From: a virus | Length of the DNA: 64,000 bases | IMG/VR virus record: IMGVR_UViG_3300027741_000001 | Direction: 5' to 3' (one strand) | Part shown: piece by piece, positions 1 through 18,479 of the stretch | Layout: every line of letters starts with the position of its first letter | Numbering within the stretch: position 1 is the first letter of the stretch | Made by a program: the position numbers and the translations under genes | The notes under the pieces: generated by a model | What the model saw: the letters and a program-made list of their open reading frames with translations, nothing else | Databases searched by the model: none | What the model was told of the DNA's origin: nothing

Positions 1-17
1 TAAACATCCATACCCAT
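1..17 (-). CDS. 5' end of a gene running off the window (MGMDV...)
   Basis: ATG at 17 preceded by CTGAAAGGAAATCAAA, the same RBS as genes starting at 1291 and 4994. Confidence 0.7.
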
Positions 18-49
18 TTTTGATTTCCTTTCAGTCGGGTTATGTTTCC

Positions 50-78
50 AAATTACCAGCTAATCAGATACAAGTCAA
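50..78 (-). promoter_or_regulatory. early sigma70/SigA-type promoter
   Basis: TTGACT-N17-TAATTT upstream of RBS. Confidence 0.55.
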
Positions 79-218
79 GTTTCTTTACAAAACTTTTCGT
101 GGATTTTCCAAAACAAGTTATCAACTCCACGCCACCACCAGAAGTAATACCACCGATTAGCGTGAGCATACATTTTACAAACTAGGGGTCTGCCCTTACA
201 GATTTCGCAGTTGATCAC
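75..218 (-). CDS. 47-aa Cys/Trp-rich hypothetical protein
   Basis: GTG start overlapping the stop of 215..514; MINCEICKGRPLVCKMYAHANRWYYFWWWRGVDNLFWKIHEKFCKET. Confidence 0.55.
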   Translation of the reverse strand: MINCEICKGRPLVCKMYAHANRWYYFWWWRGVDNLFWKIHEKFCKET

Positions 219-514
219 TTATCAAGCTTTATCTTGTAGTGGTTCGGCACTAGGTCATTTAGGTCAAACATAAACTCTAAGCTGTCGTATTGGTCTAGGT
301 TCTCGTCAAGCCACTCCTCAAAATCCGGTGTGTATTTGATGTTGGTGATTAGCCAATAGCCCTCGTCAATTTCCATTTGACACCATTGTTCAGTTCCTCG
401 CCACTCAAACCAAATCTGTCTGCCAGCGTTTTCTAGCCAAGCTCCCTCAACTTTTGTAATGACTACATCAGGGATAAAGTTGTTGTCCTCGTTGGCGTAT
501 AGATCGTATTTCAT
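215..514 (-). CDS. acidic hypothetical early protein
   Basis: 99-aa ORF with AAAAGGAAATCT RBS. Confidence 0.8.
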   Translation of the reverse strand: MKYDLYANEDNNFIPDVVITKVEGAWLENAGRQIWFEWRGTEQWCQMEIDEGYWLITNIKYTPDFEEWLDENLDQYDSLEFMFDLNDLVPNHYKIKLDK

Positions 515-865
515 AGATTTCCTTTTCTAAGAAGTTAGGTGAGCAGTTTATCAACTTACTCAGGTTTAGCATTTTTTTCTTTTAGGGAGAGAGAATAAAA
601 TACAAAAAAAGAAAACCGGATAGTTATTACCATCAACTCCAATAGGGCTACAATTTTTAGGTCTGGAAGTCAAGACCCTTAGTTTTTTCTCTTGCTAAGG
701 AACAAGCGTAGTTTAGCGACATACATTGGTCGGATTTCACTAGGTTTTCAGGGTAGTAATCCCCATACCACCAACACTTGTTCCTGAACGGACACCTCTG
801 GTTCTCCACCTAAAACTAAGACTTCTAGGTTTAGGTTTCGGTATGCCTAGCAAAAGTTTATTTAG

Positions 866-1291
866 TTATTCCTCATAAGGATTATAGTCCTGTTCGGGCG
901 ATAACTCAAATCTAAAACTAGCTCCGTATTCATCGTGGCTTGATCGGGTAATTACCATTTCCTTTTCAGGCGTAATCTCAACCCTTAGCGTGTAATCGCC
1001 ATTTATGGCAAGAGCTTTTAGTAAGTCCTTAGCAGGAACTTCTGTCCAACCACTCGTGTTGTCCCAATTCATTTTCTCGCCAACAACTCTGATGATCGTG
1101 TCCTCGTCCCAACCCTTACTGTTCAGGTATGGCATTAGAAACTCGTCTGTGAAGTATTGCTTATCGTCCTCAAAACAACCGAAACACTCGTCACTCCAAG
1201 TCATTTCGCCTGTTGTTTCGTCCTCAACCTCGCAAGAGCAAGTGTTAGACATTTTCATTTCTGTTGCCTGTGGTTCAGTTTCTTTATCCAT
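866..1291 (-). CDS. very acidic hypothetical early protein
   Basis: 141-aa ORF, conserved RBS, CxC and CxxC, D/E-rich. Confidence 0.85.
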   Translation of the reverse strand: MDKETEPQATEMKMSNTCSCEVEDETTGEMTWSDECFGCFEDDKQYFTDEFLMPYLNSKGWDEDTIIRVVGEKMNWDNTSGWTEVPAKDLLKALAINGDYTLRVEITPEKEMVITRSSHDEYGASFRFELSPEQDYNPYEE

Positions 1292-1322
1292 TTTGATTTC
1301 CTTTCAGTTGGATAAGTTCAGT

Positions 1323-1607
1323 TTATAGACTTACAAGCTGTTCGTCAAGTTCTATCGGCAAGTAGTTTGGAACTCCACCACACATAACCATACCGATTTT
1401 GATTACCAGATCACTAGGCTCAATAGCCAAACATTGAGCAACCTCTATCAGCATTTCACTACTGACTTCTTTGCGAGCTTTTTCTATTTCCCATAGGTAA
1501 GTAAGCGAGATACGCCCTGATCCTCTATTTACTGTTTGGCGTAGCGTGAGCTGTTTGTCTTGCCGGTATTCAGCGATTATGTGTCCTAGTGCTTGTCTAA
1601 ATAGCAT
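1323..1607 (-). CDS. XRE-family HTH regulator, ClgR-like
   Basis: LTLRQ...ISLTYLWEIEKARKEVSSEML resembles actinobacterial ClgR (VSLGYLSEVERGQKEASSELL). Confidence 0.8.
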   Translation of the reverse strand: MLFRQALGHIIAEYRQDKQLTLRQTVNRGSGRISLTYLWEIEKARKEVSSEMLIEVAQCLAIEPSDLVIKIGMVMCGGVPNYLPIELDEQLVSL

Positions 1608-1638
1608 TTCATTTTCCTATTCGTTTAGTGGTTTATTC

Positions 1639-1668
1639 AGCCTATACCCCTGTGTCAAGTTTTGTCAA
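1639..1668 (-). promoter_or_regulatory. early promoter
   Basis: TTGACA-N18-TAGGCT. Confidence 0.6.
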
Positions 1669-1796
1669 GTTTTAGAGAGGGACTAGGTAAGAAAAAGAAC
1701 CACCAAAAATTTACCTAGTCCCTGAACGGATAGTTAGAGAGGCATAGCGTCTATCCGTTATCGGTGAGAGAAAGCATAAACTCACCGAAGTTTGTT

Positions 1797-2684
1797 TTAT
1801 TCTAGCGTAGGAACTTCACTATTCAGGGTCGGGTATTGTCTAACTCCCTGATCGTCAAGAACCCAAGCTGTCGTTTCATCAAGAACTTCCATTTGCTCGT
1901 CAGGGTCGTTCCCCTGTTCCATAGCAAGCTCGTAAGCGTTCTCTGCTGTGTTAGTTCTTACTCGGTAAGACTTCTGAATAACAACAATGAACTCTTGTTC
2001 ATCTCTCGGACAGTCCTTATACCACTCGTCCTCGTCGCTGTCGTTGGCACACCTACAACTGTCCTCTTGGTCGCTATCGACATAGTCCTTGTGGCTTTGT
2101 GGTATGTCCCACTCTTTGTCGATACCATAACTTCCACCTGATCCTGAAAACTCTGCTCCCCAGCCTTGTTCCTCGGTTGAGTGTAAGTGGAAATGTAGTT
2201 CGGGGTGTTGCTGAACCATAGCCCTAAATACAGGTTCAGGGATAGACCAAGCAGTAGAAAAAGTGTAGCTCAAACTTCTAGTGAGATCGTCTATCTCGTC
2301 AAGTTCGGGTGAAACACACTCATCACTAGCGTCCCACTTAGTTCCCCAGTTGCTACTGTTCCAGCTATACCAGTCATCAGAAGTTTCCTTACTCTCGCCA
2401 GTAAAACCTACTCCCTCAACAAAACCAGTAGTTCCGAAATAATCGCCCAGGCTATCTGTCGGTGGTGCTATGAAGTTCCAAAAAGACATAGGACTTTCAT
2501 CTGACATTACAGTCAAAATCTTTCGGTCTTTGTCCTCTACCTTAGTAGTAGTTTTGTCCTCGTTGCGTATCCAGCTTTCAGATAGCCAGCGAGTTTCGTG
2601 TTGTTGGCTTGCCTTAGTAGCAAACTTTTTCAGTTCAGCAGGTTCGCCTGAAACAGTTAGAGAGTTATAGACCCAGTTAGGCAT
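1797..2684 (-). CDS. DUF1281/YubB ferredoxin-like domain phage protein
   Basis: MPNWVYNSLTV start; WYSWNSSNWGTKWDA and FSTAWSIPEP motifs. Confidence 0.8.
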   Translation of the reverse strand: MPNWVYNSLTVSGEPAELKKFATKASQQHETRWLSESWIRNEDKTTTKVEDKDRKILTVMSDESPMSFWNFIAPPTDSLGDYFGTTGFVEGVGFTGESKETSDDWYSWNSSNWGTKWDASDECVSPELDEIDDLTRSLSYTFSTAWSIPEPVFRAMVQQHPELHFHLHSTEEQGWGAEFSGSGGSYGIDKEWDIPQSHKDYVDSDQEDSCRCANDSDEDEWYKDCPRDEQEFIVVIQKSYRVRTNTAENAYELAMEQGNDPDEQMEVLDETTAWVLDDQGVRQYPTLNSEVPTLE

Positions 2685-3010
2685 TACTTACCCCATTTCT
2701 TTCTCTTACTAGCAGGGTGTCGCATTTGAGAAATCATTTTTGTAATGACTTCGTGGTGTTCCATTTCGCAAGTGATAACTATGTCGTTTAGTTCCTGATC
2801 ACCTAACTTTTCAGCTAGAAGTTTCATAGGCTCAAATGCTCTGTAAATAGCAGGGTTAGGCATTTCAGCCTGAACTAATGCTGATGAAATCGCACAAAAA
2901 ATTTGGATAGCAGTCGCAGCTACATCTTGTGGTTCGTTGATTTCATTTTGGATAACAGACAATAAGCTCTCGTCCTCGTTATTGTGATCGTGTGTCGGGT
3001 TATCGCACAT
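2684..3010 (-). CDS. hypothetical protein
   Basis: 108-aa ORF with RBS, translationally coupled to the next gene. Confidence 0.75.
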   Translation of the reverse strand: MCDNPTHDHNNEDESLLSVIQNEINEPQDVAATAIQIFCAISSALVQAEMPNPAIYRAFEPMKLLAEKLGDQELNDIVITCEMEHHEVITKMISQMRHPASKRKKWGK

Positions 3011-3044
3011 TTGGCAGTTCCTTTCATTTCTCGGTTGTAGTTCT

Positions 3045-3074
3045 AATTTACTTTGCTTTATACAACTTTGTCAA
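3045..3074 (-). promoter_or_regulatory. early promoter
   Basis: TTGACA-N18-TAAATT. Confidence 0.6.
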
Positions 3075-3149
3075 GTTCCTTTTTTATTTTTTTATTCCGA
3101 ACAAGTCAAGAGAAAGGAAATGAAAACTTGACCTGCTCGGAACTTTATG

Positions 3150-4994
3150 CTATCGCCCTATTCGCATACCTGCTTTGGTAAGAGCCTCTGCCCCTGCCTT
3201 ACCAACAATTTCAGCAACTTCGGTAATCGCACCCTTGACTTTTACAAGCTGTGTGTCCGAACCCTCAATAACAGCACTAGCATAAACACCCTGATCGTAA
3301 GTTATCCATAGGACACCCACCCCTGCTTGCTTACATCTTTGTAGCCAAGACTTACACGCTTTGATTTCCTCGTTGGTGTAGCAAGCGTCAGAAACGATTA
3401 CTAGCAACCTCGCACTTGTTCCACCAAGTAAATCAAGTTGTCCGTTTAGTGCCTGAAATCCTAAGTCAAACTTTTCAGTTCCGTCTGGTGCTGTATAGAC
3501 ATTTACATCTTCCAAGTGTTGTCCTACACGCAAGGTTGGAAACACGCCTGAACCGAAATAGACCATAGCAGTCTTAGCCTGAACACGCCTACCTGCCTCA
3601 CTCAAAATCCAAGCTGTGCTTGCCATAGGTTTCATAGCAGAACCCATAGAACCTGAAACATCTACCATAATCCCAATAGACAAGTTAGGTGTTTCGGTGT
3701 GCTTGCGAGTTTTGTGTCGCCAAGTTTCCACCTGCGACATAATGCCCTTAGACCTAAGAGCCTCACGCTGAACCATAGCCCTAGAACGCAACCTGCCCTG
3801 TGGCATAACCGAGTTGATTTTAGTTTCAGTTCTGTTTCTGTATTTAGCTTTCATAAACAACTTAGCAATTAGAACAGCACTTGCTCTTTCAGCAGAAGTA
3901 GGCTTGCGAGTTTCCTCTAAGCGAGAACCTGAACCACCCGAACCAATAGTTTCTTTCTCACCAAATACACGCTGACCAACTGCCTTGTGCTTGTTCTTTT
4001 CCTCTGTGGCGTTGCTCTTGCTCTTGGCTTTTTCTTTTGAGTGTTCGCCCTCTTGCTGATCGGCTAATTTGTCGTTAGCAGTCATTTCAGCGTTTTCTTT
4101 GGCGTTCTCAACTTCTTTCAGCATTTCCTCAATGGTCTTACTGCGACCCTTGCTTTTGCCCTCGCCCTCACCCTCGCCCTCACTTTCGCCCTCGCCCTCA
4201 CCACTAGGGAACTCGCAACCACCTTGCGTATCGTCCTCGCCCTTTTCTTTGGCTCGTTCAGATACAAGTCTGTCCCACTCAATAGCAAGAGGGTAAAGGT
4301 CAGTAGCGTTGTGGTGATTATCGTGAGCTTGTGCTTTTAGCCATAGTTCTCTCAACTTCTCAATAAAGTCAATGCCTAGTTTTGTTTCTAACATTTCAGC
4401 AATACCCTCAACATCACTTCTGTAAAGAATACCGGCATCTATTCTTGCCAAGACTAATCCTGCCAAGTGAGCCAATGCCCTAGTTTCAGACATTAGGGAA
4501 AGCGTATCAACATCACACTCGGCTAACACGATCTCTAAGGCACAAGAGGTTAGAAAATAACGATTAGTTGGAATAGCCATAGCACCAAATCCCTCAATGC
4601 GACTTTCCTCTAACAAGTGGAGAGCTTTGTTTTGTCTAGGGGTCAAGTCCTTAGAACTTTGTTCCAATGACCAACGAGAGAACTTAGCGTGGCAAGCCTC
4701 GTGGTAGATAGCACCGATAGCCTTTGGAAACTCATACTGATTATTTTTGTCTGCCAAGTTAGGAATAAAACTTGGTGGAATAGTCCCAAAAGCAATTTCC
4801 GTATTTACTTCTATCTCTGACGAAATAGGGTTGTATAGAGCAGGAACGGGTGCGTTTAGTTTTGTTCCAACATAAGCGATCAAGTCAGTTCTGCCTGACC
4901 AAGTATTAGCAAGTTCGCCAATAGTTTTTCCAATAGGTAGCCACTCTTTCGGTGTAGCCTTTACACCATTTGAGTTAGTTCCGAAGTGCGACAT
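3150..4994 (-). CDS. CobT-like VWA protein with N-terminal HExxH metallopeptidase-like domain
   Basis: HEACH...LEESRIE, acidic GEGE linker, MIDAS motif DVSGSM. Confidence 0.88.
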   Translation of the reverse strand: MSHFGTNSNGVKATPKEWLPIGKTIGELANTWSGRTDLIAYVGTKLNAPVPALYNPISSEIEVNTEIAFGTIPPSFIPNLADKNNQYEFPKAIGAIYHEACHAKFSRWSLEQSSKDLTPRQNKALHLLEESRIEGFGAMAIPTNRYFLTSCALEIVLAECDVDTLSLMSETRALAHLAGLVLARIDAGILYRSDVEGIAEMLETKLGIDFIEKLRELWLKAQAHDNHHNATDLYPLAIEWDRLVSERAKEKGEDDTQGGCEFPSGEGEGESEGEGEGEGKSKGRSKTIEEMLKEVENAKENAEMTANDKLADQQEGEHSKEKAKSKSNATEEKNKHKAVGQRVFGEKETIGSGGSGSRLEETRKPTSAERASAVLIAKLFMKAKYRNRTETKINSVMPQGRLRSRAMVQREALRSKGIMSQVETWRHKTRKHTETPNLSIGIMVDVSGSMGSAMKPMASTAWILSEAGRRVQAKTAMVYFGSGVFPTLRVGQHLEDVNVYTAPDGTEKFDLGFQALNGQLDLLGGTSARLLVIVSDACYTNEEIKACKSWLQRCKQAGVGVLWITYDQGVYASAVIEGSDTQLVKVKGAITEVAEIVGKAGAEALTKAGMRIGR

Positions 4995-5022
4995 AAGATT
5001 TCCTTTCAGTTGTCGTATCTTG

Positions 5023-5052
5023 ATTTTATAGAGTTGATCTTGTTTTTGTCAA
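5023..5052 (-). promoter_or_regulatory. early promoter
   Basis: TTGACA-N18-TAAAAT. Confidence 0.7.
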
Positions 5053-5121
5053 GTTTTGATTTGAGGGTAGGTAGCCAACTATAACTACCTACCCTCGCCA
5101 AAAAGCTAGGGGACACAATGC

Positions 5122-6159
5122 CTAGATTTTGGCAGTCTTTACTTCCTCGCCATAAACCCTAGACAGAACTTCGGCAACGATAGGTCTATCCAATTCGGGT
5201 GCTGACGAGATTAGGTTGCTAACAGCCCACTTAGTTCCGAACACCTTTTCCAAATCCCTAAACGCAAGTAGTTCTCGCATTTGAGGACACCAAGAAACTT
5301 CGCCAGACATAAACTTCTTAGCTAGATTTTGACTTGCTGTTGTGATAATGGCAGGGACACCCAACTTCTTAGCAAGAACCCAGTCAGTAGTGATTTCCAC
5401 TTGTGCTGTAAATCGTGAGAGCAACGCCTCTGATAGAACAACACCGACAGCATTAGGGTTAGTAGCCCCGACAACATAAAATCCGTCTTTGGCTTTGATA
5501 GTGCCTCTTTCGGGATTTTGAGTAATTGGCAATTCTCGTCTGCCGTCCATTAGACCATAGACAACTGATAGAACTTTCGGGTCAATAAGTCCGATCTCGT
5601 CAATAAATAAGACCTCACCTCGTTCAGCAGACTTGACTAATGCCCCGTCTATCCAGTCAAAAGAGCCACTAGGAGTTTGGACATAGCCACCTACCAAGTC
5701 AGAAACTTCGGTATCGCCAGAACCTAGAATTGTGTGAAGTTCCTCACCAAAAGTAGCCTCAACGAGAGCAGTTTTTCCTGTTCCCGGACTGCCATAAAAT
5801 AGTGCGAATTGGTTGATAGAACGGAGTTGTTTTAGAACAGCAGTATCTTTGTGTTCGCCCCAATTACGAGTGTAGTAAAGCTCACCATTAGGTCTTGCTA
5901 GTGCCTCGTCAGCAGATAGAGTTTCAGCCACTTTTTCTTTTACTTTCTTTTTAGTTGTTTCAGCAGACCCACGCATAGTAAGCCCACCAGATTTGGATAG
6001 GTTGTTTTTCATAGTTGTTGCGAAGTCAGCATTTACAGCTTGCGAGCCGACAGCGATCAGTAATTCAGGCAACTTAGAGGATAGACCCTCTAAATCGTTT
6101 ATCCTTGTTAGTGCTGTTGTTTCTTGTTCGGATAATGTAGCACTTATGTTTATAGTCAT
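5122..6159 (-). CDS. MoxR-family (CbbQ/NirQ/NorQ/CobS-like) AAA+ ATPase
   Basis: Walker A GSPGTGKT, Walker B LFIDE, ATNP and EALLSRF; adjacent VWA partner. Confidence 0.92.
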   Translation of the reverse strand: MTINISATLSEQETTALTRINDLEGLSSKLPELLIAVGSQAVNADFATTMKNNLSKSGGLTMRGSAETTKKKVKEKVAETLSADEALARPNGELYYTRNWGEHKDTAVLKQLRSINQFALFYGSPGTGKTALVEATFGEELHTILGSGDTEVSDLVGGYVQTPSGSFDWIDGALVKSAERGEVLFIDEIGLIDPKVLSVVYGLMDGRRELPITQNPERGTIKAKDGFYVVGATNPNAVGVVLSEALLSRFTAQVEITTDWVLAKKLGVPAIITTASQNLAKKFMSGEVSWCPQMRELLAFRDLEKVFGTKWAVSNLISSAPELDRPIVAEVLSRVYGEEVKTAKI

Positions 6160-6191
6160 TTGTTTTGTGTCCTTTCGGGGTTGTAATAAGA

Positions 6192-6719
6192 CTATACAGC
6201 AGGGGTAGGGGTTAGGTCAAATAATTCGTCAGGAAATCCGAGAGCTTTACGAGAACGCATAATTCTACGAATAAGAGCATTAGGAGTGTTCCAGTCCCTA
6301 GTGTCCTCTAAGTCCTCTTGTGAGAACTCAATGACAATAGGTTCTTTGTAAAGTTCCCATTTCTGATCAACGAGGCTATGGAAAGTTCTGTCCATAAATA
6401 CAAGACCACCGACAGCATACTTCTTTGCTAAATCGTGATCTAGCGTTTCAGCAGAACCACCATTAGCAGTTCTAGTTTCTTTTCTCTCATTTACAACTTT
6501 CCACTCTTGCGAGTAAGCTCGCCAAGGTCTGCGAGGTGAGTATGCCGATACTTGCCTACGCCAGATAGTAGAGGGAACATAAATAGGGGTAGTGCTGTCG
6601 TTCTTATCTACCGACATACTTTCAGGCGTGTAGATAACTTGTAGTGTGTGTCCGTCTTTGCGAAACTCTGTGTATAGGGCATAACCTACCGAGATGTTTG
6701 CTTTGTTTGTTTCAGCCAT
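6192..6719 (-). CDS. hypothetical protein
   Basis: 175-aa ORF with GAAAGGACAC RBS. Confidence 0.8.
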   Translation of the reverse strand: MAETNKANISVGYALYTEFRKDGHTLQVIYTPESMSVDKNDSTTPIYVPSTIWRRQVSAYSPRRPWRAYSQEWKVVNERKETRTANGGSAETLDHDLAKKYAVGGLVFMDRTFHSLVDQKWELYKEPIVIEFSQEDLEDTRDWNTPNALIRRIMRSRKALGFPDELFDLTPTPAV

Positions 6720-6759
6720 TTTTTGTGTCCTTTCAGGGTTGATTTCGGCTTACTTAGAA

Positions 6760-6789
6760 AGTCTAAGTCTTTTGTTAGAAGTTTGTCAA
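6760..6789 (-). promoter_or_regulatory. early promoter
   Basis: TTGACA-N18-TAGACT. Confidence 0.7.
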
Positions 6790-6806
6790 GTTTCTATAAA
6801 AGTTTT

Positions 6807-7340
6807 TTAGAAGTGGAAATCCACTAAAACTAGGAACTGATTTTCAGGGTTAGCGTCTATACGCTTACGGAACTCCGACAAGTTGGTATCCCACATTTCC
6901 AGATCGTAAATAGCACTATCAGATACCCACTCACCATTTAGAAGTTCAGATAGTTTCTTAGCGTAATAGAGAGGCATACTTTCAGGAACAGACCAGTCTG
7001 CCTCGTGGTCGTAGTTGTGGCTGAACAAGATGTCCTGCTTGCCCTCGTTATAGAGCTTTTGTCTGTAATTGTCTATGTCTGCGTATCTGTGTTTTAGATA
7101 GATAGCAATAGCTTTTTCAGCAGTTTCAGGATCATCTGAATACCGGAGTGTGTCAAGCTCGGCTTTTTCGCCAAATACATTTTCACTTTCCCAGCGACCA
7201 GCGAAAGATACCTCTGAATTAGATGAAACTTCGTTCCAGTCAGACCACTTTGGTTCTCCGTCGCTGAACTTGTCGGCTACTATTCCTCTTGCCTGTTCGT
7301 GAGTGTCTGCCACAACTAGCATTATTTGTGAAGTGTGAAT
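6807..7340 (-). CDS. hypothetical phage protein (FAGRW / LVLVDFHF type), probable ATT start
   Basis: ORF open; the RBS GGAAGGACAC is spaced for ATT at 7340, not for the ATG at 7322. Confidence 0.75.
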   Translation of the reverse strand: MHTSQIMLVVADTHEQARGIVADKFSDGEPKWSDWNEVSSNSEVSFAGRWESENVFGEKAELDTLRYSDDPETAEKAIAIYLKHRYADIDNYRQKLYNEGKQDILFSHNYDHEADWSVPESMPLYYAKKLSELLNGEWVSDSAIYDLEMWDTNLSEFRKRIDANPENQFLVLVDFHF

Positions 7341-7368
7341 TTTAGTGTCCTTCCGTCTTTGTAGTTCT

Positions 7369-7398
7369 ATTGTATAACTTTTATTTCTATTCCGTCAA
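7369..7398 (-). promoter_or_regulatory. early promoter
   Basis: TTGACG-N18-TACAAT. Confidence 0.65.
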
Positions 7399-7620
7399 GC
7401 TGTGGAGTGTATTTCCTTGATCCTCTAAGTATTGTCTCAGACTGACCCCTGCTGACCACCCCCTAGATGTCGGTTCAATAAAAACTATGTCGTTGGCAAA
7501 TCCATTTTTGCCCCAACGCCACTCACCATTTATGTATTGTAGCTGTCCAGCATAGATGTATCCGTTTAGTAGGTCTAGGTCTAGGATTAGTTGCGCTCTT
7601 TTTATTCCTGTTATAGCCAT
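7387..7620 (-). CDS. hypothetical protein
   Basis: TAATG coupling with upstream gene; YINGEW motif. Confidence 0.65.
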   Translation of the reverse strand: MAITGIKRAQLILDLDLLNGYIYAGQLQYINGEWRWGKNGFANDIVFIEPTSRGWSAGVSLRQYLEDQGNTLHSLTE

Positions 7621-7835
7621 TAGCCCCACCACTCGGCTAACGGATTATGAGTTCTCAATGCCTCTAAATACATCTCGTCGGTTTCAGGTGAAATGTAAAG
7701 TTGTATCTCTACCGGAAAAGTTGGTTTTCCTTGTATAAGCATTTGCCATTTACCATTTACAAATCCGTATTCCCTATGACGAATTCTGTATTCCAGTTCT
7801 ATCTCGGTTTCTTTTCTTATGGTTGGTCGCATCAT
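7620..7835 (-). CDS. hypothetical protein, paralog of 7837..8049
   Basis: LEY...YGFVNGKW...DEMY...PL.E. Confidence 0.7.
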   Translation of the reverse strand: MMRPTIRKETEIELEYRIRHREYGFVNGKWQMLIQGKPTFPVEIQLYISPETDEMYLEALRTHNPLAEWWG

Positions 7836-7836
7836 T

Positions 7837-8049
7837 TTAGAAATCTTCCGATAGAGGTCGGCAGTGCTTGTCTAGCCAATTTCTATAACGCACTTCATCA
7901 GCAGGATCCTCAACGATAGTAATTTCTATCCCAAAAAGAGGTCTGCGCTTGTGTATGTAGTGCCACTTACCATTTACAAATCCAAAGTTTGCTACGAGTG
8001 TGTGATACTCCAAGCTAGACGGTGTTTCATTTCTATTTCTTATATCCAT
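7837..8049 (-). CDS. hypothetical protein, paralog of 7620..7835
   Basis: likely start MDIRNRN; FGFVNGKW motif. Confidence 0.7.
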   Translation of the reverse strand: MDIRNRNETPSSLEYHTLVANFGFVNGKWHYIHKRRPLFGIEITIVEDPADEVRYRNWLDKHCRPLSEDF

Positions 8050-8080
8050 ACCTAAATGGTACAGGTTATATAAAAGAAAA

Positions 8081-8326
8081 TCAAGCCACAAAGCCGGGTG
8101 AAAGAACCGGTGAAACGCAACCGTCGCACAGCAGGAACTCAATGTCCTCGTCGCTGTCGTCGGTTGATAAAACGATCACGCAAGGATAGAAACCGTTAGG
8201 TGTATAGGCGATCGGTTCGTCGCAGTTTTCGCAGACCTCGAATACGCCGAACGTAGTTAGCCCAAACTCCTCGGCTTGGACAGCGTCGTGTTCGTTGTTC
8301 ATAACGTGTAGCTCTATGTGTTGCAT
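8081..8326 (-). CDS. small Zn-finger protein
   Basis: CENC...CDGC; GGAG RBS. Confidence 0.7.
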   Translation of the reverse strand: MQHIELHVMNNEHDAVQAEEFGLTTFGVFEVCENCDEPIAYTPNGFYPCVIVLSTDDSDEDIEFLLCDGCVSPVLSPGFVA

Positions 8327-8384
8327 TTGGTCTCCGTTTCAGGTCTAATGCCATTTTACGGGACGTTCTTAATAGGTGATTTGG

Positions 8385-8618
8385 CTACTCCCAGTGTTCG
8401 AGACACTGCCTTTGTTCTTCCTCACTTTCGAAGATACGGATTACGTGAATACAAGGGTCTCCACCCTCGTCAAACTCGTTCTGTTCGGTTGCAGTCATAG
8501 GTGTTCCGTCGTGTGTGTTGCACACAACTTGTGGAATAATCCAGCCTTGTTTCTTTCCATAGTCCAGCCACTCGGCTAGGTCGGAGTTGCGTTCAGGGTC
8601 TTTTATAAAATCAGTCAT
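8385..8618 (-). CDS. hypothetical actinophage-type protein
   Basis: VCNTHDGTP...EGGDPCIHVIRI. Confidence 0.75.
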   Translation of the reverse strand: MTDFIKDPERNSDLAEWLDYGKKQGWIIPQVVCNTHDGTPMTATEQNEFDEGGDPCIHVIRIFESEEEQRQCLEHWE

Positions 8619-8622
8619 AGCT

Positions 8623-8817
8623 TTACTTTACTTTCTCTAAACAGACAGTGCAAATTTTTTCTAGACAAAAACCCTCGTTGTCGGTGTTGCACTCATAGTT
8701 GCACTCAAGGCTTGATTTATGTAGATATCTTTTGAATTGATGTAGGCAGTCCAAGTCTCTGGTCAAGTCAAACTTGAACCCCATTGAACTTGCTCTAATG
8801 ATGTCGGGAGTATTCAT
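8623..8817 (-). CDS. small Cys-rich protein, probably leaderless
   Basis: TTGACT...TACGAT ending 6 nt before ATG. Confidence 0.6.
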   Translation of the reverse strand: MNTPDIIRASSMGFKFDLTRDLDCLHQFKRYLHKSSLECNYECNTDNEGFCLEKICTVCLEKVK

Positions 8818-9004
8818 ATGTATATCGTATCGGTTTAATTGAAAAAGTCAAGAAGAATTTTTGCCATCGGCTGTGGAGCTAACTTCTGATGAGTTTCGTT
8901 GGAAGTTTGAGGATGCGAAAGCTTCCAGGCGGCGGGAACTTCAAATGAGGTTCGTTGGAAGTTTTTGCCTGGAAAGCTACTTTCAGATTTATTCCCGGTT
9001 TGGC

Positions 9005-9040
9005 AAAAAAAAATCCCCGCTGTTTAGGCGGGGAATTTTT
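9005..9040. terminator. intrinsic terminator
   Basis: TCCCCGC/GCGGGGA hairpin with A/T tails. Confidence 0.75.
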
Positions 9041-9308
9041 AGTCGAGTTCTGTCATATACCAATGTCGAAAAGCTATTGCTGTTCTTCTGTCTGCAGACG
9101 TCCATCGGTTTCTTATCCACTCGTCGTCAAACAACTCTGATGGTTTGTGAGGTTGTCTGACTCTAGTGTTTGCGTCTTTTAGATAGTCAATGCAATAGTA
9201 TGGCGATTTGTGTTGGAATGCTATCCACTCGCCCAAATGTTCAATGATGAAATATTGGCATGTGTCGCAAACTTTTAGTTCCCACTGTTTGTCATTGCCT
9301 ATACGCAT
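9039..9308 (-). CDS. hypothetical protein
   Basis: start MRIGND coupled by TAATG; CxxC. Confidence 0.65.
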   Translation of the reverse strand: MRIGNDKQWELKVCDTCQYFIIEHLGEWIAFQHKSPYYCIDYLKDANTRVRQPHKPSELFDDEWIRNRWTSADRRTAIAFRHWYMTELD

Positions 9309-9583
9309 TAGTTTTCCTCTTTGAAAATCCAATTGTTTTCAAAATCATGTCTGACATTTTCGTGGTCTTCGGCGCAACTAATGCACCACCACTCTCTATA
9401 TCCGTTAGACACATAATCAACGCATTCGCTGGCTAGTCCGTCTCCACACCCCTCGCAAGTGAAGCAGTTTGACCCGTTCATACAGTCAGAACATTGATAA
9501 TACTGTTTGTCTCCGGTTATAAACATTGAGGCTGCCCCGATGTTGGAGATTAGTTCGGGACAGGAGTAGCATTGCTTACTCAT
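9308..9583 (-). CDS. multi-CxxC Zn-finger protein
   Basis: four CxxC pairs. Confidence 0.7.
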   Translation of the reverse strand: MSKQCYSCPELISNIGAASMFITGDKQYYQCSDCMNGSNCFTCEGCGDGLASECVDYVSNGYREWWCISCAEDHENVRHDFENNWIFKEEN

Positions 9584-9794
9584 CGTAGTAGCCTTCCTCG
9601 TCAGCCTCTTCGTCGAGGTCTTGACAACAACTCATACACAATCCGTGTTCGAGCATTTCTTCTGGGGTTTCAGTAGAGCAGTCTCTGCATGTGTTCTCGC
9701 AGTTTGTGCAGGCGGTTAGCTCGCCTAGTTCAGTAAAGATCATAGACGTCGGTTGCCATATCAGGCACCTCGTGCATTTTAGATTTTCTTCCAT
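9576..9794 (-). CDS. multi-CxxC Zn-finger protein with acidic tail
   Basis: four CxxC pairs, DEEADEE tail. Confidence 0.7.
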   Translation of the reverse strand: MEENLKCTRCLIWQPTSMIFTELGELTACTNCENTCRDCSTETPEEMLEHGLCMSCCQDLDEEADEEGYYDE

Positions 9795-9835
9795 ATAAGT
9801 AAGTTATCACCTTATATAAAAGAATGCAAGTTTAT

Positions 9836-10618
9836 TTATGGAATTACTGTAAAAAAGTTTCCGGTCTCTAAAGCGAGACGTTCGAGGCTTGGAAAGTCTG
9901 GAATGCCGGTTACGCTGCTTCCGATGTATCCGATTCTTCGTTGGAAGTTTGCGAAGGCTGCAGTCGTTTTGTGGTCCCACTCTCCTCGCTTAGCTCCGCG
10001 CAAACCAACGGTCATACCGAGTGCAAGTTGGATAGTTGTTACGTACGGGTGCTTGAGTCCTGGAATGATGACTGAACTTTTAACGAACGGCTTCGTTGGA
10101 AGTTTACCTGGGTCCGGATCGCTCCTCTCCTCCTGCTTCGAAAATGTTCGTGAGAAGTTTGGCCGCGCGAAGGCAAGCACGTCGTAAACATATCGGTTTC
10201 GTCTGTAGACGCCATCATTGGCCTGGCTGCCTTTTGGAGTTCCGTTGGAGGTTTGAGCTTCGATCGTCTGAAACATCCCGTGCTTTAAAAAGTGCTCGAC
10301 GTCAGTGACGATTCCTACGTGAGGCATACCCAGATCTCCTCCGTTGGAAAAGCTGAAGAAGACAATGTCGCCTGTTTTTGGTCGAACGTGCGTCATCCCT
10401 CGTTGGAAGTAGTAGCTCAGAGCTGCAGCTGTGTGCACATGGGATGGCAAGTTCAAACGAACGGTTCGTGCGATCACGTCGATGAAGCTGCCGTTCCAAT
10501 CCTTGTCTGGGTACCCAACCAGTTCTCCGTACGTTGAACCTTTGTTCATACGTGCTTGATACCCAACGTGGTTACCAGCTTCCCTAAGGAATGCTTCGCG
10601 GTTCGCTCTCGTCATCAA
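9836..10618 (-). CDS. CHAP-fold protein with C-terminal peptidoglycan-binding domain; catalytic Cys absent
   Basis: PKTGDIVFF, HVGIV, TIEAQT, DGVYRRNR; TIQLAL...DHKTTAAFANFQRR PG-binding motif. Confidence 0.8.
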   Translation of the reverse strand: MMTRANREAFLREAGNHVGYQARMNKGSTYGELVGYPDKDWNGSFIDVIARTVRLNLPSHVHTAAALSYYFQRGMTHVRPKTGDIVFFSFSNGGDLGMPHVGIVTDVEHFLKHGMFQTIEAQTSNGTPKGSQANDGVYRRNRYVYDVLAFARPNFSRTFSKQEERSDPDPGKLPTKPFVKSSVIIPGLKHPYVTTIQLALGMTVGLRGAKRGEWDHKTTAAFANFQRRIGYIGSSVTGIPDFPSLERLALETGNFFTVIP

Positions 10619-10790
10619 TCTCTCCGGTCGTTAGAAGTTTCTCCAGGGCCTGCAGCAGCAAAGCTGCTTCGTTGGCTCTGGCTGTAAGTCTTATATGTTC
10701 TAGTCTAGTGGACGCCTGGTTAACGTCTGCAGCAAGCTGGGATGCGAGTTCACGTGCGTTCGTTAGAAGTTGCGGATCCGAGCTATGCAT
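10584..10790 (-). CDS. hypothetical protein
   Basis: 68-aa ORF with GGAGG RBS between TerS-like and CHAP genes. Confidence 0.7.
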   Translation of the reverse strand: MHSSDPQLLTNARELASQLAADVNQASTRLEHIRLTARANEAALLLQALEKLLTTGEIDDESEPRSIP

Positions 10791-10795
10791 GTCGG

Positions 10796-11821
10796 TTAGT
10801 CCTCCTGGATTTCTGCGTCGATGACGTCTTCGTTGGAAGTTGTAGATCCGGCAGCGGGTGCAGCTGCAGCTTCCTGGTTCGGATCAACTTCGTTGGAAGT
10901 TACCAGGATGCCTGCCTCACTGAGCTTAGACGCAGCTTCAATTGCGTTCGTTGCAAGTCGGTTCAGACGTTCAGCAATGATGCTTGCGGCCGGACGAACA
11001 TCTAATGAGATGTTGGTATCAATTTCCATTCCTCCACGTACTCCGGCTCGGTCAAGAATTTCGGTGGCGGCTTTAAGCTTTACCGGTTCACTCTCAGCGA
11101 ACTCCATCATTTGTTCTAGAACGTCGACGGCGTAAGGAGCTGCCTGGAATAACTTCTGACGAGCTCGTTCGATGTCATCGCCTGGACGATGCTTCACTGA
11201 CCTGAGGTGGATGCGGCAAAGTCCGTCATCTTGTAGACGTCCTGAAGACCAGAGCTGGCAGCGGATCCCATCATCCTTTACGTTGGAACATCTCGTTGGA
11301 AGTGCGGCCGGCTTTCTCTTTCCAGACGTAGGCGGGCTGGATTGTTCTTTTATATAAGCACGGGTTGCGCCGATGACCCAAGGTGGGCAGATGTAGTCGG
11401 AAGCTTCTTCAGCGATGAGATCGAGGCCCGTTAGATAATCTGAGTTTTTGTTCGTTGGATCTGACAGGATGGGTTTCTTTTCAGCAAGAGAGAGGATACG
11501 TTTCTCGGTTGCCATTTCTGATGAGATAGCTTGGATCAATCCCGTTGGAACTCCGTTGGATGCGTAGACCGGTATCCAGTTGAACTTCGCACGACGTAGG
11601 AGTTGTCGGTTTTCAAACGTATCTTCGCAGACGCCGCGGTCGCTCTCTTCAATGCCGAGGAGTGAAAGGTCTGGACGTAGGTTTAAAGGTTCATTGATTT
11701 CTATAATAGGAGCTTCGAGCTCTGGAGTTTCGAAAGGATCTGAAGGGATGGCCTTAACTTCCAATGGACGTTCATTAGAAGTTGAGGATCCGGATCCTAG
11801 ATCCGAGCTATCGTCTGTCAT
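10796..11821 (-). CDS. putative terminase small subunit
   Basis: C-x9-C...CRIH Zn motif followed by AVDVLEQMM...EPVKLKAATEILDRAG, typical of TerS-like proteins. Confidence 0.6.
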   Translation of the reverse strand: MTDDSSDLGSGSSTSNERPLEVKAIPSDPFETPELEAPIIEINEPLNLRPDLSLLGIEESDRGVCEDTFENRQLLRRAKFNWIPVYASNGVPTGLIQAISSEMATEKRILSLAEKKPILSDPTNKNSDYLTGLDLIAEEASDYICPPWVIGATRAYIKEQSSPPTSGKRKPAALPTRCSNVKDDGIRCQLWSSGRLQDDGLCRIHLRSVKHRPGDDIERARQKLFQAAPYAVDVLEQMMEFAESEPVKLKAATEILDRAGVRGGMEIDTNISLDVRPAASIIAERLNRLATNAIEAASKLSEAGILVTSNEVDPNQEAAAAPAAGSTTSNEDVIDAEIQED

Positions 11822-12035
11822 ATGTTCCTTCGTTCGAAGTTTGGATCGGATGGAGTCAACCGGGGAGAGGCTCGTGACTCCACCCGACCTCTTTTGCGTT
11901 TGTTTTTGTAAACGCTAGTAAGGGGAGCCTCTTCCGCAACCTCTTTTATATAAGGTTGATAGTTCTCATTATGGGGGTAGTTTGAAAAGTTTTTTAGGCG
12001 TGAGGTGTGAGAACGCTACTCTTTCTGGTTTAGAA

Positions 12036-12078
12036 ACAAAAAAATCCCCCCGAAACCATAAGGCTTGTAGGGGGGACT
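12036..12078 (-). terminator. intrinsic terminator
   Basis: CCCCCC/GGGGGG stem with U-tract on minus strand. Confidence 0.55.
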
Positions 12079-12113
12079 AAGTAAAGTTTTGAAGTTTTAC
12101 TTTTTAAAATAAA

Positions 12114-12584
12114 CTACTTGGCAAATTTGCCTCTGCTGTCTTTTTTCTGTACCAAGGCTCTTTCACGAAGTTTTTGGTTTCTTTCTTCGTTTTTGTAGAA
12201 AGGCTCACGATATGAAAGCTCGGCCACTTCATCTCTGTGAACTAAATAGTATTTATCATTACCTAGAACATAATACTTTTGTAGTCGTCCTTGATTGATG
12301 TGGTAATTTAATGCTCTTCGATTTAGGTAAAGCATTTCAGCAGCTTCATCCAAAGTAACCAAATCAGGGTGAACTTCTAAAACACGGTCTAGCCATTTAG
12401 ACGCTAGCCGAGCTTCATTGAGATCGACCAGAAAGTTCCAACCATTTGGGTTTTGATATCTTTTTAGTCTGCCTTTTTTAATCCAGTAGTGAACCATACC
12501 GACAGTAACGTAAAGAGCTTTACCTGCTTCTTTTGCAGTTACCAACTCTACTTCTTTTTCTTGCAATTGCATATCTCCCAGCAT
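12114..12584 (-). CDS. tandem excisionase/MerR-like HTH DNA-binding protein
   Basis: two repeats of LVT..EA...L.....V/L.Y.I..GRL..Y. Confidence 0.8.
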   Translation of the reverse strand: MLGDMQLQEKEVELVTAKEAGKALYVTVGMVHYWIKKGRLKRYQNPNGWNFLVDLNEARLASKWLDRVLEVHPDLVTLDEAAEMLYLNRRALNYHINQGRLQKYYVLGNDKYYLVHRDEVAELSYREPFYKNEERNQKLRERALVQKKDSRGKFAK

Positions 12585-12754
12585 TCTTGAGTTTTTTCTA
12601 GCCTAGCATTTCTGTCTGACAAAACTCTAATTCTGCGTTGTTCTTTTAAATCATCATCTAGTCCCCAAATAGTAGGGGGCCAAGTTTTAGGAGGTTCAGG
12701 TGGATCGATTATAAACCTTCCAACAGAATTTCTAAGCGGTTCACTAATGCTCAT
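12548..12754 (-). CDS. hypothetical protein, paralog of 12751..13032
   Basis: RNSVGRFI...RNARLEKTQECWEICNC. Confidence 0.65.
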   Translation of the reverse strand: MSISEPLRNSVGRFIIDPPEPPKTWPPTIWGLDDDLKEQRRIRVLSDRNARLEKTQECWEICNCKKKK

Positions 12755-13032
12755 TGGGTTCCTTTACTTTTTTCCTTGCAATTGCATTCTCCCCAACATT
12801 CTTGAGTTTTCTCCAATTCGGCGTTTCTCTCTAATAAATTTTGTATTTTATATCGTTCTCTTAAGGAATCGTTATGTTGAAAAATTACATCTAATGTTTC
12901 ATCATCCATGCTTAAGGTGTAAGGCAGCGGTAGTCCTAATTCTGGGTCGGAAGGATATATAAACCTTCCAACAGAATCTCTAATCGGTTCACCATTTGCT
13001 TTTTTCAAAGGTTCATTGTTCTTTGGATTCAT
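12751..13032 (-). CDS. hypothetical protein, paralog of 12548..12754
   Basis: RDSVGRFI...RNAELEKTQECWGECNC. Confidence 0.7.
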   Translation of the reverse strand: MNPKNNEPLKKANGEPIRDSVGRFIYPSDPELGLPLPYTLSMDDETLDVIFQHNDSLRERYKIQNLLERNAELEKTQECWGECNCKEKSKGTQ

Positions 13033-13162
13033 CTACTTCTTCTTCTTCTTCTTCTTTCTTGCTGGGATGACATTTGGTGCAATCACAATACCAAATCTTG
13101 TCGTAATATTTAATTTCTGTTTTGCAGTTTTCGTGATGACCCGTGGCACAAAAACCGCACAT
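13013..13162 (-). CDS. small Cys/His Zn-binding protein
   Basis: MCGFCATGHHENC...WYCDCTKCH, read manually. Confidence 0.65.
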   Translation of the reverse strand: MCGFCATGHHENCKTEIKYYDKIWYCDCTKCHPSKKEEEEEEVDESKEQ

Positions 13163-13166
13163 TGGT

Positions 13167-13649
13167 CTACTCGGGTTCTTCGCCCTCATTAAAATCCTCT
13201 GGTGTCGGGGGTTCTGGATATTCTTCTAGGTAGGATACAAATGCTTCGTAAAGCATATCCGGAGTTAATTCTGGAGTATCTTCGTCAATTTCTTCTTCGT
13301 ACTCTTCCATAGCTGTTCGTTCGAACTCTAGATCATCTTCAAACTCTTTCTCTTCTCTAGAAAGTTCATTGTAGTAGTCATCTTCTTCGGCTTGACGATT
13401 TGACTCTTCTTGACTTTTTTCCATCCACTGATCAATAACTTTAATTAGCTCGCCCATTGTTAAATATTTTATAACCCCATTCCAATCTTCAGAGTTGCGT
13501 AAAGCTAGTCTAAGCAAGTCCACTGACATTTTCAATCGTTGCATATCAGCTGGCATACTTAACACTCTCAAAACTTTAAGTCCGGGGAGTTCGTGCATTG
13601 GCATAACTTCCAATTCGATATCGGAAATCTCTAAAACTATATATTCCAT
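13167..13649 (-). CDS. acidic hypothetical protein
   Basis: 160-aa ORF, E/D-rich C-terminal half. Confidence 0.75.
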   Translation of the reverse strand: MEYIVLEISDIELEVMPMHELPGLKVLRVLSMPADMQRLKMSVDLLRLALRNSEDWNGVIKYLTMGELIKVIDQWMEKSQEESNRQAEEDDYYNELSREEKEFEDDLEFERTAMEEYEEEIDEDTPELTPDMLYEAFVSYLEEYPEPPTPEDFNEGEEPE

Positions 13650-14134
13650 TACAGACCTTTCGAAACAAGAGGGGTGATTTTAAGTTTTGGATCATTGGAG
13701 AAGGTTATACCCCAACCCTCGCATTGAGGGCAGTCTTCCGTATTCACCCTATGAACTATTCCGGTGCCTGTGCATTTAGGGCAAGTGATAAGTATCTCAC
13801 CATTTAGATTTTCATATTCATAAACGCTTTCCAGCTCTATATCAGAAATCTCTAATTCAACTATTTTTTCCATAATTTTCTGGATAACTTCATTGGCATT
13901 GAACTCGCTAATGGTATTCATGTATTGCTCAATCCAGACTTTAACAATTGTGCCTTTGGCACTAATTGAATAAGTTGCTCTGCCAGTAACATCTTCTCTA
14001 ACGCCGATGCTTTTGTAGATTACATCTCGAGCGATCTGAACTGCTTCATCTAGGTATTTAACTTCTAAGTATTGACCTTGCTTTGTGTATCTGAACTCGG
14101 CGTAGGTCTGAACTATTGGTCTATCTATTGTCAT
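13649..14134 (-). CDS. hypothetical protein with DnaJ-type Zn-finger repeats
   Basis: CPKCTGTG...CPQCEGWG. Confidence 0.75.
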   Translation of the reverse strand: MTIDRPIVQTYAEFRYTKQGQYLEVKYLDEAVQIARDVIYKSIGVREDVTGRATYSISAKGTIVKVWIEQYMNTISEFNANEVIQKIMEKIVELEISDIELESVYEYENLNGEILITCPKCTGTGIVHRVNTEDCPQCEGWGITFSNDPKLKITPLVSKGL

Positions 14135-14158
14135 TATGTATTTATCCTATCGGTTATC

Positions 14159-14608
14159 TTATCGGCAGTCAACACAAAGAAATGCGTTGTACCCGTGTTT
14201 ACCATTTTGAGAGATCGCTACTGGACTAATTGGCTTTTCCACATCACATCTATCGCATTTAGGATCAATCAGCCACTTAATCTCTACTCCAAGAGATTTT
14301 GCCTTAGACATAGATTTACTCAAAGCGTGTGAAGTTCCTGATCCATTAGTTTTTCTCAAAAACAGTCTTGTATCAGATACTTCCAAAACTAGACGAATCT
14401 GCTTACAATCGCAAGCCATCCTGGTTGGGTTACAAGCTACAACATCAGCATAAGTTGAATGTCTTGTATTTGGGTGTCCGCAGATACAGATCCGTCCATC
14501 ACGTTCTCTAGTTCGAATAACTTCTTCTTCTGCAACTTGTAAAGCTTCTTCTTCCGAGAAATCGAAAAAGCTCATTGCATCCTTATTTTCTTCCAATTTT
14601 ATCTCCAA
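14159..14608 (-). CDS. Cys-rich Zn-binding hypothetical protein
   Basis: CICGH...H...C...CDC, CDRC, CVDC. Confidence 0.75.
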   Translation of the reverse strand: MEIKLEENKDAMSFFDFSEEEALQVAEEEVIRTRERDGRICICGHPNTRHSTYADVVACNPTRMACDCKQIRLVLEVSDTRLFLRKTNGSGTSHALSKSMSKAKSLGVEIKWLIDPKCDRCDVEKPISPVAISQNGKHGYNAFLCVDCR

Positions 14609-14766
14609 TCGATAATTAAAAATGATACCTTACGAAACAACTATAACACAACTAAAAACCCATTTATTGGTTTATTTCAACCTTTTTTTACTACGCGTAT
14701 AGAGAAAAAATTCCGCATTAAGGGAAAATATAGTTGCAATAAACCATAAAGTGTATATTGGATTAG

Positions 14767-14873
14767 TTATACTATCAACTTTTTTACAAAAACTTTTGTT
14801 TTTTCCGATAGTATCTCTACCATAGATACTATTCACTTTTTGCAATAACTTTTCAAAATATCTGATAGTATCT
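14767..14873. repeat. two tandem 50-bp inverted-repeat elements (operator/origin candidate)
   Basis: 14767-14816 and 14824-14873, AGATACTAT-N32-ATAGTATCT (first copy degenerate on the left); third copy at 47403. Confidence 0.85.
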
Positions 14874-14912
14874 TTTATAGTTGTACACAAGATCCCTCGA
14901 AAGGACCCCCCG

Positions 14913-15323
14913 ATGAGTTGTCGTGAAACACCAGATTTTGACGAATCCGAGGTCCTTATGTACAAAAAATTACACAAAAAAGCTTCTGGAAACCCTTGGA
15001 TATTCTCCACGTTTAAGGGTGACGAATATCCTCCAGACATCATTCTTTCGATAGTTTTAAGTGCGGCAGCTTGGCCGGTAATGATCTGGTATTGGACAAA
15101 ATCATATCTTTGGCCTATTTTCTCAATTCTTCTATCTACGGCACTTTTGGCAATTTGCTTCAATTTAGGCTCTTTCTATCTTTATGTCTTAATTGGCTAT
15201 TTCAGCGCATTATTCGGAATTACAAGCTGGCTCCTAATTGGCTTTGCTCACGGAACTACCCCAAAACACAGAGAAATGACCATAAAAGAGTGGTCAGACC
15301 ATATTACTAAAGATTTAGATTAA
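14913..15323 (+). CDS. membrane protein
   Basis: about three hydrophobic helices. Confidence 0.65.
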   Translation: MSCRETPDFDESEVLMYKKLHKKASGNPWIFSTFKGDEYPPDIILSIVLSAAAWPVMIWYWTKSYLWPIFSILLSTALLAICFNLGSFYLYVLIGYFSALFGITSWLLIGFAHGTTPKHREMTIKEWSDHITKDLD

Positions 15324-15393
15324 AAGGTCATAAACCCGATTCTGCGGTAAAATAGATTCGGGAGAGATACACCTCTATAGAGAGATATCTCAT

Positions 15394-18279: not shown

Positions 18280-18479
18280 TGAAAAAACTAGGAAAGTTCC
18301 TATCAGACCTACTAAAAGACCTACTTGACCAAGCTTGGACCCTACTAGGTTTAGCTTTAGGTTGGGTACTTCTAGAAGGCTCAGCAAGAGATATCGTAGG
18401 AAAACTAATTGGAGTCACACTTCTAATCTGGGTACTCACATTCCCTATTAGACGTGAAAAAGACGAGGATGACGAGTAA
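18279..18479 (+). CDS. small two-TM membrane protein (holin-like)
   Basis: two hydrophobic segments, charged tail, upstream of M23 peptidase. Confidence 0.7.
   Translation: MKKLGKFLSDLLKDLLDQAWTLLGLALGWVLLEGSARDIVGKLIGVTLLIWVLTFPIRREKDEDDE

Follow-up and report, generated by a model that had tools for sequence, protein, structure and literature searches.

Loss of restriction-type words from a 16.7-kb early-gene block in an uncultured family of freshwater actinobacterial phages

The virus recorded in IMG/VR as IMGVR_UViG_3300027741_000001, of which a stretch of 64,000 nucleotides (termed here the window) was analyzed, carries a block of early genes from which more than 20 distinct short words of the restriction-site type have been depleted. 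The whole purged block comprises 16,710 bases, from window position 8040 to a point that precedes the window start by about 8,670 bases, representing 12% of a genome of roughly 135 kb. The phage is of the virulent type and belongs to freshwater actinobacteria. With moderate confidence, we explain the block by an avoidance of restriction sites that is confined to early-exposed DNA, which is probably also the DNA that enters the cell first. The case is an extreme form of a known principle, from which it differs in scale.

An earlier note, made from the sequence alone, had claimed that nine 4-base palindromes and GANTC are absent from window positions 1-7590, and exact counts bear this out: CATG, TGCA, GTAC, ACGT, GGCC, GCGC, CGCG, TTAA, ATAT, and GANTC each occur 0 times. 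Beyond this list, CCGC/GCGG is missing on both strands (0 copies), and TCGA is nearly absent, with 2 copies compared to 21-31 expected. A second-order Markov model built on the block itself predicts 8-31 copies of each missing word. Codon-preserving shuffles, the check that the earlier note had asked for, left the depletion standing: in 500 shuffles that preserved each protein and the codon usage of each gene, means were 5-21 copies per missing word, and zero was never reached as a minimum. GATC, AGCT, CTAG, AATT, and CCGG had been reported to persist, and all five are indeed present (23, 33, 39, 24, and 6 copies, respectively). GATC, CTAG, and CCGG are normal relative to the shuffles, but AGCT is somewhat low and AATT lies below every shuffle (mean of 39, minimum of 26), as does TATA (19 copies versus a mean of 32 and a minimum of 20). 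Forbidden dipeptides (Met-His/Gln, Trp-Pro) were not found in the block proteins, for which just 2-3 were expected, too few to weigh.

The depletion is regional and not genome-wide, the latter being one of the two findings that the earlier note had named as its refutation. Sites of the purged words occur at 0-2 per kb up to 8 kb and at 15-53 per kb over the other 56 kb of the window, with an average of about 35 per kb outside the block, and the longest gap without sites measures 5,474 bases in the block versus 291 elsewhere in the window. Both the remainder of the window and the unpurged genome parts of a close relative (G2, see below) contain 25-45 sites per kb. The window lineage retains all sixteen 4-base palindromes in the DNA outside the block, CATG and GCGC being only moderately low. 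The G+C content is unchanged across the purge edge, and that of the block is like that of the remaining genome.

The limits of 1-7590 originally proposed for the block were right in that this segment is purged throughout, but too narrow, since the purge really reaches position 8040 on one side and about 8.7 kb past the window start on the other. The first occurrences reported for the individual words were accurate (GCGC at 7593, ATAT at 8042, ACGT at 8251 and 8304, and TGCA at 8322), and the only sites between 7590 and 8040 are two GCGC. The flank beyond the window start was recovered by exact-protein look-ups, which led to contigs in Logan assemblies and in two lake metagenomes of JGI. Contigs L001 and L006, which match the window identically over 5.6 and 10.5 kb, extend the block past the left edge of the window, and the far end of the purge is sharp. 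Both block junctions recur in several independent assemblies from different samples. A near match of the block was not found in the phage collection, nor was an exact match of the window start in IMG/VR, and no common break point that might serve as a clue to the termini was seen among the contig ends of public assemblies. With the remainder of the window as the source of expected counts, the full 16,710 bases contain 0 copies of ACGT (51 expected), CATG (40), GTAC (59), TGCA (79), GGCC (18), CGCG (9), and GANTC (46), whereas TTAA occurs once (94 expected), ATAT 5 times (86), TCGA 3 times (36), and GCNGC once (45).

A search for extra words, in which words containing forbidden 4-mers were set aside, identified GAAGA/TCTTC, TTSAA, GCWGC and GCSGC (together GCNGC), CCATC/GATGG, GGATG/CATCC, GTCTC/GAGAC, GGWCC, and ACSGT as depleted in both orientations, as well as the six-base words CTGAAG, CTRYAG, and AGATCT. 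We take these words to match the prototypes MboII, AgsI, Fnu4HI/TseI, BccI, FokI, BsmAI, AvaII, HpyCH4III, AcuI, SfcI, and BglII. Since the genes share a strand and non-palindromic words are nevertheless depleted in both orientations, it is DNA and not messenger RNA that is under the constraint. A separate observation concerns CCCA, which is depleted on the coding strand only, that is, the minus strand of window 1-8040 and the plus strand of the G2 block (2 versus 28 expected); TGGG is not depleted.

Relatives were identified with the 614-amino-acid protein encoded in the block, a search that returned 16 related IMG/VR loci with identities of 42-97%; the genomes concerned measure 125-137 kb. 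The records of four relatives were fetched whole, namely, G2 (97% identity, 135,096 bp; the record of locus L011), G1 (88%), G3, and G4, and the assemblies of G1 and G2 are circular. In G2, the purge covers positions 2907-19253 (16.3 kb) and a second patch, and G1 has the same layout. The blocks of G1 and G2 are 88% identical over 15 kb and contain 5 and 6 forbidden sites, respectively, whereas random substitutions of the same number and spectrum applied to the G2 block generated 255 ± 15 such sites. The purge is therefore due to selection and not to history, and it is kept by ongoing purifying selection. Synteny of the block extends across the family, down to 42% protein identity. The nearest TerL sequences are those of the lake metagenome phage DSL-LC01 and of cultured Microbacterium, Gordonia, and Arthrobacter phages, so that an actinobacterial host is well supported; two WhiB genes are present in each of G1, G2, G3, and G4.

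The words that are missing depend on the lineage. Relatives at 64-97% identity lack the same words as the window block, and more distant lineages purge different ones. AGCT, GATC, and TCGA are at zero across the 125 kb of G3, in which ACGT, ATAT, GGCC, TTAA, and TGCA are missing only in a 22-kb block. In G4, CCGG is nearly absent genome-wide, and ACGT, ATAT, GTAC, TATA, TTAA, and GGCC are missing in the block. Locus L025 lacks GATC and CCGG throughout its 21.8 kb and nearly all the words in the block, and in DSL-LC01, 42 kb are devoid of ATAT and TTAA without there being a regional purge. Such two-tier, lineage-specific sets are the pattern to be expected from host-specific restriction-modification (R-M) repertoires: with some enzymes, escape would require that all sites be lost, and with others, it would suffice to clear the early DNA. 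GATC was also seen to be absent from five fetched loci (L015, L016, L021, L023, and L025), and G3, with no AGCT, GATC, or TCGA, nevertheless encodes two tandem N4/N6 methyltransferases at 43.6-45.4 kb.

The second purged patch is an island of 2.2 kb (G2 24332-26504, about 14.0-16.2 kb before the window start) located between TerL and a 168-amino-acid protein (p168) encoded upstream of the portal gene. Its four small genes lie on the opposite strand and have promoters of their own as well as strong hairpin terminators. The island has 2-3 sites, compared to 32 expected under random substitution, indicating that its purge is likewise maintained by selection. The 5-kb gap between block and island, which contains small genes and those of TerL, an NlpC/P60 protein, and a peptidoglycan-binding protein, shows background levels of all the words and is near equilibrium (124-147 sites versus 169). 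In G3, the corresponding convergent unit directly adjoins the block as well as p168 and the portal gene, resulting in a single purged region of 22 kb. A DUF3846 gene is found in the opposite-strand unit of G4 (114017-114334) and in the main block of G2 (11348-11731), and since it occupies different units in the two genomes, the two purged compartments exchange genes. The island of the window lineage also contains a non-coding array of 350 bases (L028 5775-6130, corresponding to G2 25775-26130) with about 33 copies of CAGGCT and four exact copies of the 15-base repeat GGTTAGGGCTAATGC. The array and GGTTAGGGCTAATGC might be a packaging, terminus, or replication signal; in T7, short-repeat arrays adjoin the terminal repeats.

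The block contains about 45 genes, mostly small and all on one strand, and its promoters are of the host type as judged by consensus matches. A sigma70-like pattern (TTGACN, 17-18 bases, TANNNT) has 24 plus-strand matches in the 135 kb of G2, 18 of which are inside the block, and 3 of the 10 minus-strand matches lie in the second purged patch. In the window, 8 matches are found in positions 1-7398, whereas the remaining 56.6 kb have 10 when both strands are counted. Small early-type genes under predicted host sigma70-type promoters, as in the first-step transfer (FST) DNA of T5-type phages, are thus found here too. The view of the earlier note that an early block avoids restriction words gains support from the selection against restriction-type words, the co-directional small genes, and the promoter array. 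Its interpretation is upheld in part: such selection in an early block, probably a terminal one, stands on firm ground, but the staged injection that it proposed is an inference.

The position of the block in the genome was approached through the cultured members of the same terminase clade. Phage A3Wally has related TerL and portal proteins (63% and 60% identical, respectively), and exact direct terminal repeats of 15,503 bp and 7,581 bp are present in A3Wally and GodonK, respectively. The A3Wally repeat begins with a homologue (38% identical) of the 341-amino-acid protein encoded at 10796-11821 of the window, followed by a homologue of the window endolysin and about 37 co-directional small genes; a convergent small-gene unit, TerL, a homologue of p168, and the portal gene come after this array. 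The window phage shows the gene order of this clade (341-amino-acid protein, endolysin, array, and packaging and head genes), and because of this likeness the purged array corresponds to the body of the A3Wally repeat. On these grounds, it is plausible that the block would lie at a physical end of the genome.

Under the explanation that we favor, the host RNA polymerase would probably read the block from its chain of sigma70-like promoters, and purifying selection would clear the block and the 2.2-kb island of restriction-enzyme recognition words: ten 4-base palindromes out of the sixteen that exist, the words GANTC, GCNGC, and TTSAA, and asymmetric ones, of which GAAGA and CCATC are examples. 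The purged DNA would have to stay uncut and be transcribed before the counter-defense of the phage exists, and the remaining chromosome would still be outside the cell, or already be protected, on meeting the enzymes. We infer all three elements of this account, namely, host restriction as the selecting agent, the entry of the block ahead of other DNA, and the protection of the remainder.

There are precedents for such a rule. T5-like phages are restricted by Type I and Type II systems only through sites in their FST DNA (PMC10644984). Murciaviruses are restricted only via a motif in the early-injected region, and selection by R-M systems has been argued to act at sub-genome scale (PMC12455610). 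The block carries the signature that such a rule would leave in a sequence, and selection preserves it. Like the FST DNA of T5 and BF23, the block accounts for about 8-12% of a genome of 120-135 kb and combines small genes of the host-takeover type with host-type promoters, and the cultured relatives of the present phage have long exact terminal repeats in the syntenic place. Differences from T5 are that its FST DNA shows no bulk purge (627 four-base palindromes versus 580 expected; NC_005859), that it consists of two divergent units whereas the main block has one orientation, and that the second purged unit of the present phage is not contiguous with the block; homologues of A1, A2, and dmp were not found by Pfam and PHROGs searches of the ten block proteins in the window. 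In T5, DNA transfer takes place in two steps and halts at an injection stop signal until the pre-early proteins A1 and A2 take effect; in the present phage, which is known from sequence alone, such a mechanism is hypothetical. With the T7-like leading region (that of Murciaviruses, and T7 gene 0.3/Ocr), the block shares a chain of host-type promoters that all point the same way and the acidic first product. However, the Murciavirus study concerned single Type I motifs in 40-kb podophages and not 20 or more words over 16.7 kb, the first acidic protein has no Ocr-like or ArdA-like fold that could be detected in its predicted structure, and many genes of the present phage outside the block are on the other strand. 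The leading regions of conjugative plasmids also enter first; according to work cited in PMC12455610, they are poor in R-M targets and contain many anti-defense genes. The SSB gene in the purged block is a further point of resemblance to these regions, which belong to a different type of element and enter as single-stranded DNA; the ArdA, PsiB, and KlcA families were not found here. Classical genome-wide palindrome avoidance involves the same kind of word and the same presumed agent, and some words are lost genome-wide in G3, G4, L025, and DSL-LC01, but in the window lineage the avoidance is regional. Literature searches provided no description of a regional bulk purge of this kind.

Several findings weigh against this explanation. 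In the window lineage, the purged DNA is not one contiguous leading end, since an unpurged TerL segment intervenes, and a simple model of a leading 16 kb that precede all other DNA into the cell does not explain why the island stays purged though cut off by unpurged late DNA. The last early-type promoter cassette, just past the downstream block edge, is only partly purged. Judged by synteny with A3Wally, the repeat would start in unpurged DNA, about 3.8 kb upstream of where the purge sets in, and virion termini are not readable from circular assemblies, in which any repeat collapses. The absence of a bulk purge noted above for T5 FST DNA extends to the A3Wally repeat and to the left end of GodonK, and domain searches revealed no recognizable anti-restriction family in the block.

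Some of these findings suit an alternative that we consider unlikely, though it deserves to be taken seriously, according to which the whole genome enters at once, mostly shielded by chemical modification or by co-injected coating proteins, and only the early units are bare and avoid sites. It would account for two purged pieces that each coincide with a sigma70-like promoter cluster, for the purge of the island being kept despite the late genes between it and the block, and for the purge of the equivalent convergent unit of G3. The partly purged cassette fits it poorly, however, and to our knowledge no region-specific DNA modification or coating has been described. Moreover, C5, N4/N6, and D12-class DNA methyltransferase, ThyA-like (thymidylate-synthase-like hydroxymethylase), and TGT/DpdA families were not found in G1 or G2 (PF01555, PF00145, PF02086, PF00303, and PF01702), which weakens the case for a chemical shield without closing it. 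PF05063 also gave no match in G1 and G2, but control genomes gave none either, and the same applies to PF00940 (T7-type RNA polymerase). Window segments 19544-26286 and 41739-44016 encode a pyrimidine-dimer glycosylase together with three sugar enzymes, namely, a UDP-glucose dehydrogenase, a GT1 glycosyltransferase, and an FkbM-type methyltransferase. The sugar enzymes look glycan-synthetic and not DNA-modifying, and they probably act on glycans, for example in virion glycosylation, which is known in other actinophages. We give a similarly small chance to the purge marking not a contiguous leading end but all units, regardless of their location, that are read at once by the host polymerase, or, in a variant, to the words being the specificities of nucleases delivered by the phage.

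It is considerably less likely that the phage avoids its own enzymes, the missing words being the specificities of nucleases that it brings or makes early against host DNA and the rest of the genome entering or replicating later. Host DNA is degraded by T5 in the course of first-step transfer, and there is no explanation of how the phage DNA is spared (PMC10644984); in addition, more than 20 depleted words are many for a single host population. Against this, no nuclease of matching specificity was identified, about 20 separate specificities would be needed in one phage, and the genome-wide loss of words in some relatives fits host enzymes more simply. A constraint on RNA, by which early messengers would avoid the targets of endoribonuclease toxins or unwanted structure, is very improbable: it could explain the strand-specific CCCA deficit, but the depleted set consists mainly of palindromes and reads as a list of Type II and Type IIS restriction sites, and the low frequency of asymmetric words in both orientations, in a block whose genes share one strand, largely refutes it. 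An origin of the block in chimeric assembly, or in recent import from some word-avoiding genome, with no selection at present, is hardly credible, since nothing beyond the sharp edges speaks for it and it is refuted by the junctions in independent assemblies and the survival of the purge through 12% nucleotide divergence, besides the ordinary G+C content and the family-wide synteny of the block.

The rule that restriction acts mainly on first-exposed DNA has so far come from a few laboratory phages and from single sites. Restriction-site avoidance in early-exposed DNA would here be seen on another scale, in an uncultured family in which 16.7 kb are devoid of twenty or more short words and the edges are sharp to tens of bases. 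If this is true, early-exposed DNA could be located from the sequence by itself in phages that cannot be cultured, and so, probably, could the ends of their genomes. The lists of words missing in each lineage would predict the restriction repertoires of uncultured hosts, and the two tiers would separate the enzymes that a phage can disarm (regional avoidance) from those beyond its reach (genome-wide avoidance). Many new counter-defense genes should, moreover, be found in the purged block.

Features of the purged block and its surroundings in the window (aa, amino acids; HTH, helix-turn-helix; pI, isoelectric point)
Feature	Position	Strand	Remarks
Purged early-gene block, window part	1..8040	-	Residual sites just TCGA at 2077 and 2119 and GCGC at 7593 and 7945
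Upstream purge edge	8041..8080	-	Spacer between zinc-finger-like gene (8081-8326, ordinary) and first purged gene; ATAT at 8042 starts dense sites
Three tandem paralogous small genes, block opening	7387..8031	-	About 64, 71, and 77 aa; shared F/Y-[VI]-N-G-[KE]-W motif
First sigma70-like promoter of array	7369..7398	-	TTGACG, 18-base spacer, TACAAT
Seven further same-strand promoter matches	6789, 6220, 5052, 3074, 1668, 1348, 78	-	
Acidic 171-aa protein, first gene after first promoter	6807..7322	-	pI 4.5, net charge -18
AAA+ ATPase (AAA_5, MoxR/CobS-like)	5122..6159	-	
614-aa partner protein of AAA_5 ATPase	3150..4994	-	Conserved across phage family; marker for finding relatives
Very acidic 295-aa protein	1797..2684	-	Net charge -38; DUF1281_C/Api92-like domain
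Small protein, weak HTH match	1323..1607	-	HTH_19, E 0.0012, below Pfam cut-off
Acidic 141-aa protein with Cys motifs	866..1291	-	Net charge -22
Acidic 99-aa protein	215..514	-	Net charge -14; query for sequence past window edge
Unpurged same-strand neighbor	8081..11821	-	Small genes, endolysin (9836-10618), 341-aa protein (10796-11821)

The three paralogues that open the block form a shoulder of the purge, with just two GCGC, and are located upstream of the first consensus promoter; the same three genes contain 4 sites in G2. Many block products are strongly acidic, including that of the first gene after the first promoter. By its position and charge only, this 171-amino-acid protein is a candidate counter-defense protein. 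Its AlphaFold model, based on a 17-sequence alignment, has a pLDDT (predicted local distance difference test) of 83; Foldseek gave no match at E ≤ 0.001, the matches of VIA-align did not exceed a Z score of 3.9, and the predicted structure neither makes nor excludes an Ocr/ArdA-like assignment. Searches of the ten block proteins of the window against Pfam and PHROGs gave just the AAA_5 ATPase, the weak helix-turn-helix match, and DUF1281_C, and PDB sequence searches returned no match for the 295- and 614-amino-acid proteins. A homologue of the latter in OQ999401 is labelled as a cobalamin biosynthesis protein, and in one bacterial ESM Atlas cluster the DUF1281_C/Api92-like domain is fused to an LPD28 (polyvalent-protein) domain. 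Over the whole block, the domains recognized are those of the AAA_5 ATPase, its 614-amino-acid partner, SSB, DUF3846, a prepilin-peptidase-like protein, and helix-turn-helix proteins.

The window also encodes DNA polymerase I, a helicase, a primase, ribonucleotide reductase, exonucleases, the endolysin, and a tail-fibre-like protein. A 13-base word, AACTTCYAACGAA, has 38 copies in the window when up to 2 mismatches are allowed, compared to 4 expected. Its copies form two clusters, one on the minus strand at 8895-11841 and one on the plus strand at 15891-17613, and in both they follow the direction of local transcription; the former cluster fills exactly the unpurged stretch from the repeat start predicted by synteny to the purge edge.

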